Shown: in pieces, positions 3,559-5,863 of the stretch | Layout: every line of letters starts with the position of its first letter | How positions within the stretch are numbered: the stretch's first letter is position 1 | Virus record (IMG/VR): IMGVR_UViG_3300018486_000129 | Location: 1-5,863 of that record | Direction: 5' to 3' (one strand) | Length of the DNA stretch: 5,863 nt | DNA from: a virus | Lineage: Duplodnaviria > Heunggongvirae > Uroviricota > Caudoviricetes | Position numbers and translations under genes: made by a program | The notes under the pieces: model-generated | The model's input: the letters and a program-made list of their open reading frames with translations, nothing else | What the model was told of the DNA's origin: nothing | Database searches by the model: none

Positions 3559-3571
3559 TGAAATCCTCGTT

Positions 3572-3604
3572 AAAAAAAAAGCCCCGCCGAAAAAGGCAGG
3601 GCTT
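3572..3604 (-). terminator. Rho-independent terminator directly upstream of the holin RBS (tR'-like)
   Basis: Minus-strand RNA AAGCCCUGCC-UUUUUC-GGCGGGGCUU followed by nine U (plus-strand A-run 3572..3580). Stem has one U.G wobble that would be a C.A mismatch on the plus strand. Confidence 0.65.
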
Positions 3605-3937
3605 CATAAAGCAACAAATTACGCGGTAATCGCTTAACGCAGTTTTACTACGTTAAATGAAACACTACACCCAGTTACCACCTAAAACAAGGCTTCCCCA
3701 TAAAAAAACCTTCATTCTGTGGTTAACTGATCAATAAAAAAACAATACTCAACTTTTTACCAACCGAACATCCCGACCAGGACTTCCATAATATTCGCCG
3801 ATATGCCACTGCTTAAGTTGAGTAATCTTCTCCAACTTAACGCCCATAGAGTCCAGTTTCTGCCATGTTTTCGGTTGTATGTGCTTCATTACCCGCTCTG
3901 AATATCTGAATACTGCTCGTAAGCGCATGGCTTCTCA
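3605..3937 (-). promoter_or_regulatory. Non-coding leader upstream of the lysis cassette; candidate late promoter and short terminated leader RNA
   Basis: About 335 bp with no ORF of 60 aa or more on the minus strand, AT-rich in places, ending in the terminator. No confident -35/-10 pair could be assigned by eye. Confidence 0.35.
3813..3840. repeat. Inverted repeat TTAAGTTG-N12-CAACTTAA in the leader
   Basis: Perfect 8-bp arms at 3813..3820 and 3833..3840 separated by 12 bp. No adjacent U-run. Confidence 0.4.
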
Positions 3938-4129
3938 CTACAGCTTATATAAGTGGTTTTTCCAGCGGTTTTGCGCCGCGCTGCGCTTATCTTTGACTCC
4001 CTCTCTGGCAATTCCAAAAAATGAGAACAACACCACACGACGATTGCTAACTCTCAACCACTGGCTGGGATAGCAAAGCCTGTATACTCGCGAAATAATC
4101 ATCCTGGCTTTACGATTGTTGGTTGCCAT
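3938..4129 (-). CDS. Small basic hypothetical protein (63 aa)
   Basis: Strong RBS AGGAG 6 nt upstream of ATG 4129, which lies 1 nt after the upstream TGA stop. Arg/Lys-rich. No family recognised; a plus-strand ORF overlaps it, so coding status is uncertain. Confidence 0.4.
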   Translation of the reverse strand: MATNNRKARMIISRVYRLCYPSQWLRVSNRRVVLFSFFGIAREGVKDKRSAAQNRWKNHLYKL

Positions 4130-4130
4130 A

Positions 4131-4802
4131 TCACTCTCCTTTTATGCGAATGCCAGCGGCGCGCTCGGCTTCACTTTGTTCCCAAAACCACTTATGAAGC
4201 TCCATGAGCTTTTCGTCAATCGGTGCATATTTGCGATTAAAGTAGGCCTGAGCATCTTTCTCAGATTCGTCCGGCAATTCGCCTGGGCCAAACAGTGTGT
4301 TATAAATCCATGCCAGTCCGCTCTTAGCGTCGCCAGTTGCCTGCCATTCGATAATCGCAGCCTGCATGACAAGAATGTTTTTCCCGATTAATAGGTCCAG
4401 TTCTTTGAACCGGTTGCGGATGTATGCATTCTCGCTTTGTAATTTTGCGTTGCGCTTCTCTGCGGCTTCCAGCTCAACACGCAGCTTCCCTACCGTTAGC
4501 GCAATATCCTCGTTCTCCTGGTCACGGCTTTTGATGTATTGCAGGTTTCTTTCCCGTTCATCCAGCAGTGCCTGCACTACTTCAGGGTTGAAAGCTGCGA
4601 TATAACGAGCGTTGTTCTCTGCGTTTTTCTGTTCGTCGAATCCAGGCCAGTCGACAATATCTCCGTGATGATTATCTCCTGGTGTGTGCACAGCGTACGT
4701 GCCGTGTTTGCCCGGCGAAATAAATGCGACCCATTCGCCCTGTGTTGCCTGTTTTGCTATCTCACGTAGCGCCTGATAGTTAATTGCTGTGCTGTTAGTC
4801 AT
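4131..4802 (-). CDS. Ead/Ea22-like family protein (about 223 aa)
   Basis: Start set at ATG 4802 (MTNSTAINYQALREIAKQATQGEWVAF...), which has GGAGG 6 nt upstream and matches the conserved Ead/Ea22-like N-terminal motif as recalled from memory. The ORF-track start at 4847 lies inside the upstream gene. Central coiled-coil-like region. Confidence 0.6.
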   Translation of the reverse strand: MTNSTAINYQALREIAKQATQGEWVAFISPGKHGTYAVHTPGDNHHGDIVDWPGFDEQKNAENNARYIAAFNPEVVQALLDERERNLQYIKSRDQENEDIALTVGKLRVELEAAEKRNAKLQSENAYIRNRFKELDLLIGKNILVMQAAIIEWQATGDAKSGLAWIYNTLFGPGELPDESEKDAQAYFNRKYAPIDEKLMELHKWFWEQSEAERAAGIRIKGE

Positions 4803-5139
4803 TCCAGGCCTCCAGCTCGTTCTGAATCTCCTCGTCAACCTCGTCATTGGTGGCGTCTTCGTTCAGATGGTCGCGCGCCTCTTTGAGATACTGTTCACGG
4901 CGTTCGTGGTACCAGGCTGAGAACTCCGGCGACCATCCTCGATTAGCCCCCTGAAAATCTACCATCGCATTATCCTCGGCCATACGCTCGACCATGCAAT
5001 CCGCGGTGTTCAGTGCAACCTCACGGATGTACCCCCGCAGGTCGCGCTTACGCCAATACGGGCTATATTTTGAGTCGCAGCGGCCTTTAAATTCGACGGT
5101 CCAGCGACGGATGCAGCGTGCGTTAAGTGATTTGCTCAT
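4795..5139 (-). CDS. Hypothetical protein (114 aa), basic Cys-containing N-terminus and acidic C-terminal tail
   Basis: RBS AGGAAG 7 nt upstream of ATG 5139. Stop overlaps the Ea22-like start by 8 nt. No family recognised. Confidence 0.55.
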   Translation of the reverse strand: MSKSLNARCIRRWTVEFKGRCDSKYSPYWRKRDLRGYIREVALNTADCMVERMAEDNAMVDFQGANRGWSPEFSAWYHERREQYLKEARDHLNEDATNDEVDEEIQNELEAWND

Positions 5140-5141
5140 AG

Positions 5142-5810
5142 TTATGCTTCCTGAATACGCTTAAACTCAATTACCCATACCCACGGGTTAGATAGCCAGT
5201 TCTCTTGCCCGTAAATACCGCGCCAGATATCACCAAAGCCAACGCGATAAACAGCTTCCGGCGGTGTAATCTTGTACGTCGCCGGAGATGCGCCTTCCGC
5301 TTTAGCATCTGCCTCGCTCATGTCATGCAGCCGTTCCACACGCACGTCGGTAATTTCCAACAGAATGCGTGATGCCCATCGCGGCATGTGAATTGATGGA
5401 CGCCACCCACCATCAAACTTTTCATTCACAGTGTGAGGTTTCCAGTCGGCATCATCGGGTATCGACCACAAGCCGTAATCACCAGGCTTTTGCTCACAAC
5501 TGGCCCGATAAATCCTTGCTGCGTTCTTCTCATCGCCACGACAAAGGTTGTCGTTCCAGTCCACACTGCAACCATCCTCATTGCCTAATATCGCCCACGC
5601 CTCGCGGACCCATATGCGATCACCAACGTTACCGAACGGGCATAAACCATGTTCCGGTGCATCCATAACGTGGGTATAGACACCATTGCGTTTCTTTGTC
5701 GGTTTACGGATAACCAGGCAGTTATCGGCCCTGACATTTTTTACAGGTCGGCGAGTCTGCGTTTTCCTTCCTTCGAGGATGGCCCGGACCATCTCATCGT
5801 TAAAAATCAT
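5142..5810 (-). CDS. ASCH-domain (PUA-like fold) protein, about 222 aa
   Basis: Start set at ATG 5810 (MIFNDEMVRAILEGRKTQTRRPV...) because the ORF-track start at 5837 is a GTG whose first codons contain the likely RBS. N-terminal GRKTQTRR...GDRIWVRE and C-terminal VWVIEFKRI resemble the ASCH signature (compare E. coli YqfB, from memory). Confidence 0.65.
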   Translation of the reverse strand: MIFNDEMVRAILEGRKTQTRRPVKNVRADNCLVIRKPTKKRNGVYTHVMDAPEHGLCPFGNVGDRIWVREAWAILGNEDGCSVDWNDNLCRGDEKNAARIYRASCEQKPGDYGLWSIPDDADWKPHTVNEKFDGGWRPSIHMPRWASRILLEITDVRVERLHDMSEADAKAEGASPATYKITPPEAVYRVGFGDIWRGIYGQENWLSNPWVWVIEFKRIQEA

Positions 5811-5863
5811 GCCGCGCTCTTTCACTCTCCCTCCCACGTTTTCAGACTTTCACCACAAAACGG

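Follow-up and report, generated by a model that had tools for sequence, protein, structure and literature searches.

In the stretch of DNA analysed here (5,863 nucleotides, hereafter the window), three closely spaced genes encode an ASCH protein related to PmgT of phage P1, an orphan protein of 114 amino acids (p114) and a homologue of phage Ea22. We conclude that they probably form the distal part of a long, closely packed early operon and are three accessory genes that assort independently of one another, comparable to those in the lambda exo-xis and P22 ea regions, rather than a dedicated system of three components. The lambda exo-xis, P22 ea and Mu semi-essential early regions are likewise composed of small, packed early genes which assort independently and break at gene boundaries. 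Unlike those regions, the one described here has a single gene, p114, whose fixed 21-nt junction serves at least 11 different genes downstream.

Gene chain and replicon

Open reading frames read from the window sequence confirmed three minus-strand genes between positions 4131 and 5825 (Table 1). A preliminary description of this DNA had given their spacing correctly as a 2-nt gap and an 8-nt overlap; the gap lies at 5140-5141 and the overlap at 4795-4802. The trio is an arbitrary slice of a longer chain, with further genes on both sides. In relatives the gene upstream of ASCH also overlaps the ASCH start by 4 nt, and this upstream neighbour is variable, because homology between the window and its relatives ends at 5824. 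On the other side, a terminator-like hairpin directly ahead of the holin gene would mark the end of the early gene chain. Close packing is not peculiar to the trio and is normal across the window, where the lysis genes have spacings of -14, -14 and -4. The tight spacing of the trio may accordingly be read as ordinary phage gene packing together with the p114 junction.

Table 1. Features of the minus-strand gene chain, with positions in the window.
Feature	Positions	Strand	Basis
Upstream ORF, 3' end, truncated by the window edge	5822..5863	-	Reading frame; its TGA and the ASCH GTG overlap by 4 nt (GTGA)
PmgT-type ASCH protein, 227 aa	5142..5825	-	ASCH fold and PmgT similarity
p114, orphan 114-aa protein	4795..5139	-	ORF; phrog_6675
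Conserved junction CTGGAGGCCTGGAATGACTAA	4795..4815	-	Shine-Dalgarno GGAGG, downstream ATG and p114 stop
Ea22 homologue, 223 aa, ATG at 4802	4131..4802	-	PF13935
63-aa gene, 1 nt past the Ea22 stop	3938..4129	-	phrog_1380, E=4e-29; hypothetical protein in relatives
59-aa gene, 9 nt past the 63-aa gene, last gene ahead of the terminator-like hairpin	3749..3928	-	phrog_9594, E=9e-46
Intrinsic-terminator-like hairpin	3578..3605	-	11 pairs, 7 of them G-C, and a T run; directly ahead of the holin gene

The most likely start of the ASCH gene is GTG 5825, which has GGAGG ahead of it, rather than ATG 5810. More specifically, the K-E-R-G residues ahead of the methionine of ATG 5810 are at least 90% conserved among ASCH homologues, the same stretch is kept when the gene occurs in other contexts (N-terminus MTERGMIFN), and PGAP annotates the gene in relatives at 684 nt, equal in length to the version starting at 5825; GTG 5825 is therefore preferred.

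At least 80% of the window is found in 35 complete Escherichia coli genomes, and the best-matching records listed are plasmids of about 47-50 kb. Two of these plasmids were inspected; both are circular and encode terminase, portal and ParB-like proteins, and one of them also encodes ParA and an XRE repressor. vB_YpM_41/44 are related phages that exist as isolates. To judge from these sequence matches, the host replicon is a circular E. coli phage-plasmid of about 48 kb. The trio block, at a coverage of at least 80%, is present in nine complete E. coli genomes at about 97% identity and on plasmids of two sizes, about 48 kb and about 96-100 kb. The one plasmid of the larger class that was inspected is P1-like, and in its copy of the block the ASCH gene is frameshifted and Ea22 is truncated. 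Because the trio occurs in two replicon types at about 97% identity, it can move as a block.

Homologues of p114 and Ea22 in lambdoid prophages lie in the leftward early operon, in the interval from the recombination genes or the immunity region to xis-int. The 'nin-like position' proposed for the trio is apt for this replicon in a positional sense, as the genes lie between early genes and the lysis cassette, but it does not apply to lambdoid prophages, where the corresponding region is exo-xis. The accessory nature ascribed to the three genes is upheld.

Linkage of the three genes

Gene neighbourhoods were compared at 95 p114 loci, a redundant and enterobacterial sample. Ea22 lies downstream of p114 at about 10 of these loci. 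ASCH adjoins p114 at 22 (14 downstream, 8 upstream) and is never found two or three genes away on either side. Among 351 phage records with ASCH, p114 is present in 21 and the two genes were seen to be adjacent in five. Where ASCH and p114 adjoin, their alleles do not diverge in step (Mantel r=0.05, p=0.31): sister plasmids with ASCH genes 97% identical carry p114 alleles that are just 65% identical, and near-identical p114 alleles are paired with ASCH alleles that are merely 49% identical. Homology breakpoints fall at 5824/5825, within Ea22 and after p114. The preliminary description had suggested that the three genes form a module and had made conserved linkage part of the test of that idea; the neighbourhood analysis found no conserved linkage of the trio across divergent genomes, and the near lack of conserved linkage counts against the module.

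The adjacency of ASCH and p114 nevertheless exceeds what is expected for unrelated genes, with three phage types and both gene orders represented, so that a functional link of some kind is conceivable. Adjacency was found in phage-plasmids, in a Mu-like phage (order ASCH-p114-GemA) and in lambdoid prophages, and RothD has the order p114-ASCH with an MT-A70 gene nearby. The window and PhiR68_1 have ASCH and p114 separated by the same 2-nt gap, at 81% DNA identity over 1,034 nt (88% over the ASCH part by megablast). These observations would suit a functional pair, for example an enzyme and its regulator or targeting subunit, with Ea22 as an unrelated neighbour. We consider such a pair rather unlikely. 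ASCH is not a neighbour of p114 at about three quarters of p114 loci, nearly all ASCH genes lack p114, the alleles do not diverge together, and adjacency is expected anyway if both cassettes share an insertion hot spot.

The PmgT-type ASCH protein

The assignment of the first gene to ASCH is borne out by a clear match to the PUA-like beta-barrel ASCH fold in the fold search, though the Pfam ASCH model (PF04266) scored 17.3 bits, below its gathering threshold of 21.2, and matched residues 151-176 only. Searching PDB sequences with the ASCH profile returned no match; the fold search alone succeeded. The domain is split, with its barrel halves at about residues 6-75 and 152-225 and an insertion of about 75 residues between them. 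Over its full length the protein resembles P1 PmgT (E=1e-107, 69% identity over 232 residues), and it belongs to PHROG 874 (phrog_874, E=3e-86), the PmgT family, which comprises 351 phage records with hosts of many phyla; ASCH/PmgT proteins make up more than 8,000 clusters. Proteins of this type occur in hundreds of phages, from those of Proteobacteria to Bacteroidota-infecting crAss-like phages and cyanophages.

In P1, pmgT (annotated 'putative morphogenetic function') is the first gene of the C1-repressed pmgT-pmgU-pmgV cluster, so that both it and the window gene are early or repressor-controlled accessory genes. P1 PmgT differs in length (309 aa) and in its C-terminal extension, and the genes that follow it, pmgU and pmgV, are unrelated to p114. 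A relationship of p114 to PmgU or PmgV, proteins of similar length encoded after pmgT in P1, was considered and rejected (hhalign probability below 1%).

A second point of comparison is E. coli YqfB, an N4-acetylcytidine amidohydrolase of the ASCH superfamily and of the GKTR octapeptide type, in which mutagenesis identified Lys21, Thr24, Arg26 and Glu74 as catalytic (PMC6972931). The window protein carries the YqfB-type motif G-x-K-x-x-T-x-R (G19, K21, T24, R26) together with E177, which hhalign places on YqfB E74. K21, T24, R26 and E177 are invariant in an alignment of nine very distant phage ASCH homologues with YqfB; the YqfB sequence in this alignment agrees with the seven conserved positions listed in PMC6972931. 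The two proteins differ in size: YqfB-type proteins are single domains of about 100-110 residues (103 aa in YqfB), whereas the window protein has 227 aa and its insertion holds a family-specific motif, PSIHMPRWASR. H70 and D27 of YqfB are replaced by Asp and Pro, respectively.

The preliminary description had called the ASCH protein 'reader-like', which is probably wrong given that the catalytic residues of YqfB are retained. A non-catalytic reader of modified bases (m6A, for example) would work with the MT-A70 methyltransferase of the element. ASCH domains are repeatedly fused to, or in operons with, N6-adenine methyltransferases (PMC4738411), an MT-A70 gene is present in the window at 812-1399 as well as near p114-ASCH in RothD, and two family members (L059 and L063) lack K21 and T24. 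We regard the reader as distinctly unlikely, since the invariance of the four residues in very distant phage homologues is hard to explain without catalysis and the methyltransferase gene lies 3.7 kb off, beyond the lysis cassette.

ASCH proteins have been proposed as tRNA-ac4C erasers (bioRxiv 10.64898/2026.02.27.708502). By analogy with YqfB, we infer that PmgT-type ASCH proteins may be amidohydrolases with N4-acylated cytosine as their substrate, for example ac4C in tRNA or in nucleosides. One could extend this to a more specific hypothesis, in which these proteins are early phage N4-acylcytidine deacylases that erase ac4C from host tRNA (the wobble base of E. coli elongator tRNA-Met) or from nucleotides, and p114 is an optional partner that guides or controls the enzyme in enterobacterial phages; as a whole, this would be a long shot. 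The window also encodes a tRNA with a CAU anticodon, which was considered as an ac4C-bearing elongator tRNA-Met linked to ASCH. This candidate was dropped, as PGAP annotates the tRNA in relatives as tRNA-Ile and its arms resemble those of ileX.

p114, its 3' junction and Ea22

p114 belongs to a narrow enterobacterial orphan family, phrog_6675 (annotated 'unknown function'), with 285 clusters at 90% identity, every named one from enteric bacteria, and 52 matches among 1.84 billion representatives. Searches of Pfam, NCBIfam and PADLOC gave no match to p114, a PDB sequence search with its profile returned noise only, and no relatives were found among solved or viral folds (Foldseek against BFVD, no match at E<=0.001). 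Four helices are predicted (AF2 pLDDT 86.5). The N-terminal third is basic (12 K+R, 4 D+E) and the C-terminal third acidic (13 D+E, 3 K+R); the acidic tail noticed earlier shows the highest conservation within p114. The cysteines noticed with it are present but deserve little weight, as C9 alone never varies, C21 rarely does and Ser alternates with Cys at position 48. With a single invariant Cys and no metal-binding pattern, zinc binding was dropped as a candidate function. Across 60 alleles, variation is concentrated four-fold at third codon positions. Our guess is that p114 is a small bipolar helical protein that would use its invariant acidic C-terminal helix to bind a conserved partner from the host or the phage.

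At 41 of the 95 loci p114 lies 34 nt downstream of recT, and the protein is small, acidic, helical and early, all of which would fit a recombination accessory or host nuclease inhibitor, a functional analogue of Gam or Abc2. This role is very unlikely: p114 has no Pfam similarity and no solved or viral fold match, and in the phage-plasmid, the Mu-like phage and the YfdQ/YfdR-type context no recombination genes adjoin it.

The last 21 nt of p114 include its own stop codon along with a Shine-Dalgarno sequence and the start codon (ATG) of the following gene. This junction, CTGGAGGCCTGGAATGACTAA, is conserved ahead of at least 11 downstream gene families that are unrelated to one another; column identity drops from 0.93 to 0.46 exactly at the p114 stop codon. 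The -8 spacing (an 8-nt overlap) occurs at 84 of 94 p114 loci, and one identical p114 protein (P0035) occurs with differing downstream genes. On these alignments, CTGGAGGCCTGGAATGACTAA is a cassette boundary. Because the junction supplies both a ribosome site and an ATG, any gene landing 3' of p114 would be translationally coupled and would start with M-T-x. The 8-nt overlap, which had been read as a sign of co-translation of the three genes, is thus the generic 3' end of p114. To our knowledge, this particular junction has not been described previously.

The Ead/Ea22 assignment of the third gene was correct: its residues 7-125 match PF13935 with E=7e-34 and 117.7 bits against a cut-off of 27, and the protein is of the 933W type. 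Ea22 consists of an N-terminal domain, a central coiled coil and a C-terminal domain (PMC7093339), and whole-length alignment with P32 Ea22 recovers these three parts in the window protein, with weak coiled-coil-type matches at residues 74-136. With Ea22 of the Stx phages 933W/P32/P22 (that of lambda is more distant), it shares the Pfam Ead_Ea22 domain and the early-operon location. Residues 76-223, spanning the coiled coil and C-terminal domain, are nearly identical to 933W/P32 Ea22 save for a deletion of 28 coiled-coil residues, whereas the N-terminal 75 or so residues differ from those of P32. DNA at 4131-4577 is 95-96% identical to Stx phages, and mosaic breakpoints in sister plasmids lie at about 4552-4577, 4761 and 4163. 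By these comparisons, the Ea22 gene is itself chimeric.

The C-terminal half of Ea22 has no PDB sequence match and, by sequence test, has no relationship to the solved CTD of lambda Ea22 and falls outside its fold family. Ea22 of lambdoid phages is located between exo and xis in the pL operon, and the Stx-phage homologue sits in the exo-xis region, whereas the window gene is carried by a plasmid-prophage that lacks exo, xis and int. Deletions in lambda and Phi24B have revealed a pro-lysogenic phenotype of Ea22 (PMC7093339, PMC10834534), and the window protein could similarly be an oligomeric coiled-coil protein that tips development in favour of lysogeny or maintenance. PADLOC reported nothing on the trio beyond a match of Ea22 to the Dpd defence protein DpdH (PDLC02890), which was rejected, as only the C-terminal half matches and relatives have no dpd-like genes.

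A single functional accessory module, in which the three products work jointly and co-translation sets a fixed stoichiometry, is extremely unlikely: tight spacing and a block kept on two plasmid size classes are in its favour, but the linkage is recent (97% DNA identity) and unconserved, the gene 3' of p114 varies at a generic junction, sister plasmids show breakpoints within the chimeric Ea22 gene, the P1-like copy has pseudogenes in place of two of the three, and p114 adjoins ASCH in very few ASCH phage records.

As a three-gene module the trio has no significance, its linkage being an accident of phage mosaicism. The p114 junction is a very clean example of a gene boundary that brings a ribosome site and a start codon to interchangeable cassettes, and helps to explain how accessory genes may be swapped without loss of expression. 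The PmgT family, labelled 'morphogenetic' for twenty years, retains the complete catalytic set of the YqfB ac4C amidohydrolase; the activity predicted from it can be assayed, and would tie phages to the newly proposed ASCH erasers of tRNA ac4C.

The replicon and its gene chain

Matching records agree with the window at 95–98% identity along its entire 5.9 kb. At least 80% of it is present in 35 of 5,426 complete E. coli genomes; among the matches listed, the best are plasmids of approximately 47–50 kb, and the Yersinia phages vB_YpM_41 and vB_YpM_44 also match. The two plasmids inspected are both circular and carry genes for terminase, portal and several ParB-like proteins; one also has ParA and an XRE-type repressor. 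The element is therefore identified as a phage-plasmid. Its genes lie on the minus strand throughout the window (Table). In relatives, a same-strand run extends over about 7 kb and diverges from the repressor gene at its start, and the genes for the ASCH protein, the 114-aa protein (p114) and the Ea22-like protein form its far end.

Table. Features of the window, in the order of transcription
Feature	Position	Strand	Remark
Upstream ORF (end)		minus
ASCH gene	5142–5825	minus	start probably GTG 5825
p114 gene	4795–5139	minus
Ea22-like gene	4131–4802	minus
Two small genes		minus
Strong terminator-like hairpin	3605–3578	minus	end of gene chain
Two holin genes		minus
GH108 endolysin gene		minus
ORF, 92 aa	2076–2354	minus	hydrophobic N-terminal stretch; candidate spanin gene
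ORF, 69 aa	1952–2161	minus	lipobox-like LIASC; overlaps 92-aa ORF; candidate spanin gene
tRNA, anticodon CAT	1707–1782	minus	ARAGORN: tRNA-Met; PGAP in sister plasmids: tRNA-Ile
MT-A70 family methyltransferase gene	812–1399	minus	3.7 kb from the ASCH gene on one element
Two small genes		minus

Re-reading of the sequence confirmed the three ORFs with their 2-nt gap and 8-nt overlap. The preliminary description had put the upstream boundary of the trio at 5810; the ORFs are as described, but the ASCH start is probably GTG 5825, which has GGAGG in front of it, rather than ATG 5810. This start is preferred because the K-E-R-G segment preceding the ATG-5810 methionine is conserved among homologues and is kept where the ASCH gene stands behind p114 (the start there being MTERGMIFN), and because the gene in relatives is 684 nt according to PGAP, the same length as the GTG-5825 version. 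Read from the sequence, this GTG overlaps the upstream ORF by 4 nt, and downstream of Ea22 come two further genes, at spacings of +1 and +9 nt, each matching a PHROG family. The trio is thus a segment cut from a longer gene chain, and spacing as tight as its own is usual throughout the window: for the lysis genes the values are -14, -14 and -4 nt. At 5824/5825, precisely where the ASCH start codon lies, homology to all three sister elements compared comes to an end; the gene preceding ASCH differs from theirs, marking another gene-boundary breakpoint.

The hairpin is preceded by a 190-nt gap (3559–3748 region), on the minus strand of which no sigma-70-like promoter was found, and lies about 20 nt ahead of a holin start codon. 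This layout recalls lambda pR'-tR' ahead of the lysis genes and, by analogy, hints that the late genes may be under antitermination control. The 92-aa and 69-aa ORFs, of which the relatives' annotation includes only the former and which have no Pfam matches, are a probable overlapped i-spanin/o-spanin pair. The tRNA probably reads AUA after lysidine modification, since its acceptor, D and anticodon arms look like those of E. coli ileX.

The junction at the p114 3' end

Collected p114 loci (n=95) comprise 12 from species-representative genomes, 80 from viral contigs, and three annotated relatives plus the window; one genome locus is a 170-nt contig without neighbours. The 8-nt overlap with the next gene occurs in 84 of 94 cases, and the genes that follow fall into no fewer than 11 unrelated families, among them a 64–67-aa protein, ASCH, Ea22-like, methyltransferase-like and coiled-coil proteins; in a Mu-like phage, the position is occupied by GemA. 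In front of all these families the p114 3' end keeps CTGGAGGCnTGGAATGACTrA, a junction that holds the Shine-Dalgarno sequence and ATG of the following gene, and right at the p114 stop codon column identity falls from 0.93 to 0.46. Copies of one identical p114 protein (P0035) even differ in what comes next: an Ea22-like gene in some prophages, something else in other prophages. Because the same junction precedes so many unrelated families, the overlap is a property of p114 and not of the p114–Ea22 pair, and its reading as the sign of a co-translated trio is not supported.

Upstream of p114, 41 loci have recT with a spacing of +34 nt, and 38 have small winged-helix-like or other proteins spaced at -4 nt. 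An 84-aa winged-helix-like protein stands at -4 nt in 20 loci (e.g. L016–L029, 5750–6004), the phage-plasmids have a distantly related 100-aa protein (E=9e-6; L001, strand reversed, 7333–7635), and a third protein of this kind is a 139-aa wHTH plus PerC-like one (L055, 2573–2992). Such small proteins are repeatedly encoded just ahead of p114 or ASCH-p114.

Association among the three genes

The alternative that ASCH and p114 form a facultative functional pair seems unlikely. ASCH directly adjoins p114 in 22 of the 95 loci (14 downstream, 8 upstream) and never stands at the second or third position from it; the order is ASCH-p114-GemA in the Mu-like phage PhiR68_1 and p114-ASCH in Klebsiella phage RothD. 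The phage collection has 21 records with p114 and 351 with ASCH, and the two were observed side by side in 5. Adjacent alleles show no co-divergence (Mantel r=0.05, p=0.31, n=19), and sister plasmids sharing 97% identity in ASCH share just 65% in their p114 alleles. Phage P1 carries pmgT-pmgU-pmgV without a p114 relative.

That all three genes constitute one module is highly improbable: the neighbours vary, ASCH and p114 show no co-divergence, and the whole trio reaches ≥80% query coverage in just 9 of 5,426 E. coli genomes, of which four are plasmids of ~96–100 kb. On the one large plasmid inspected (E. coli pO103_CEC12044_1, P1-like, 100 kb, 4997–6700), the block replaces pmgT-pmgU-pmgV, with pmgT frameshifted, p114 intact and Ea22 truncated; its p114 protein accession equals that of a 48-kb plasmid. 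This sequence pattern suggests that two phage-plasmid types exchanged DNA recently and that decay set in afterwards. The proposed nin-like position fits insofar as the trio lies just upstream of the lysis cassette here, but in lambdoid prophages the p114 and Ea22 homologues are genes of the leftward early operon, lying between recombination genes or the immunity region and xis-int.

The three protein families and the overall reading

The ASCH domain of the first gene falls below the Pfam threshold (17.3 bits against a cut-off of 21.2), but the protein shares 69% identity with phage P1 PmgT (E=1e-107) and is a member of PHROG 874. The E. coli protein YqfB is an N4-acetylcytidine (ac4C) amidohydrolase in which Lys21, Thr24 and Arg26 are essential to activity and mutation of Glu74 lowers turnover up to 1,000-fold (PMC6972931). 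The gene 1 protein has G19-R-K21-T-Q-T24-R-R26 at positions equal to those of YqfB, and hhalign places E177 on Glu74. G19, K21, T24, R26 and E177 are invariant in an alignment of YqfB with nine family members from phages of Escherichia, Klebsiella, Pseudomonas, Myxococcus, Vibrio, Salinibacter and Pseudanabaena and from one crAss-like phage. Since these residues are invariant and 19 of 19 ASCH proteins tested are reported to remove ac4C from tRNA (2026 preprint, 10.64898/2026.02.27.708502), the protein is read here, in preference to a passive reader, as a probable N4-acylcytosine amidohydrolase carrying an insertion specific to its family. The ASCH/PmgT family spans >8,000 clusters and 351 phage records. 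Two ASCH members downstream of p114 (L059, L063; gene from 6338) read GSMAQVRR and GSITQVRR versus GRKTQTRR; with the catalytic Lys and Thr lost, they are possibly non-catalytic variants. ASCH proteins and N6-adenine methyltransferases are reportedly associated time and again in bacteria and phages (PMC4738411).

p114 has no matches in Pfam, NCBIfam or PADLOC and belongs to PHROG 6675, a family without assigned function. It is a small family of narrow range, with 285 clusters at 90% identity, the source-named ones almost all from Enterobacteriaceae, and only 52 matches, for the most part fragments, among 1.84 billion representatives. Across 60 distinct alleles, variation at third codon positions is fourfold higher, which marks p114 as a real gene under purifying selection. 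The predicted model has four helices (pLDDT 86.5) and no convincing structural relatives in the PDB or BFVD. Its N-terminal third is basic and its C-terminal third acidic; the acidic tail noted earlier is the best-conserved segment (T-N-D-E-I-D-E-E-I-Q-N-E-L-E-A-W-N-D), while just one cysteine is invariant. In one 215-aa representative (P0268), the p114 domain follows an 80-residue N-terminal extension.

The Ead/Ea22-like identity of the third gene was upheld (Pfam Ead_Ea22, E=7e-34). From residue 76 to 223 the protein is almost the same as Ea22 of Stx phage P32 (933W type), minus 28 coiled-coil residues; its first ~75 residues are unlike that protein. DNA 4131–4577 is 95–96% identical to many Stx phages, in which Ea22 lies in the exo-xis region, and homology to the sister plasmids breaks within the gene at ~4552–4577, 4761 and 4163; by these comparisons the gene is a chimera. 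Lambda and Phi24B Ea22 favour lysogeny, and full-length lambda Ea22 is a tetramer, with C-terminal domains varying among phages (PMC7093339, PMC10834534). A PADLOC 'DpdH' model (PDLC02890, 127 positions) matches residues 111–210 (4172–4472, E=8e-37), within the 933W-type C-terminal part, and no other dpd genes are nearby; the model may derive from prophage genes, or a defence system may share the domain.

The trio is best read as a mosaic array, of an ordinary sort, made up of early accessory genes that would be expressed within one long operon, each gene with its own ribosome site and with translational coupling implied by position. Each of the three genes has its own history and, most probably, its own function. 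The identifiable parts belong to known kinds (the PmgT/ASCH family, Ea22, exo-xis-type mosaic regions), and their combination, earlier not recognised as a characterised one, is accounted for by chance juxtaposition. Two modest leads emerge: the fixed cassette junction at the p114 end, and the YqfB catalytic set that phage PmgT proteins keep, a lead open to direct testing.
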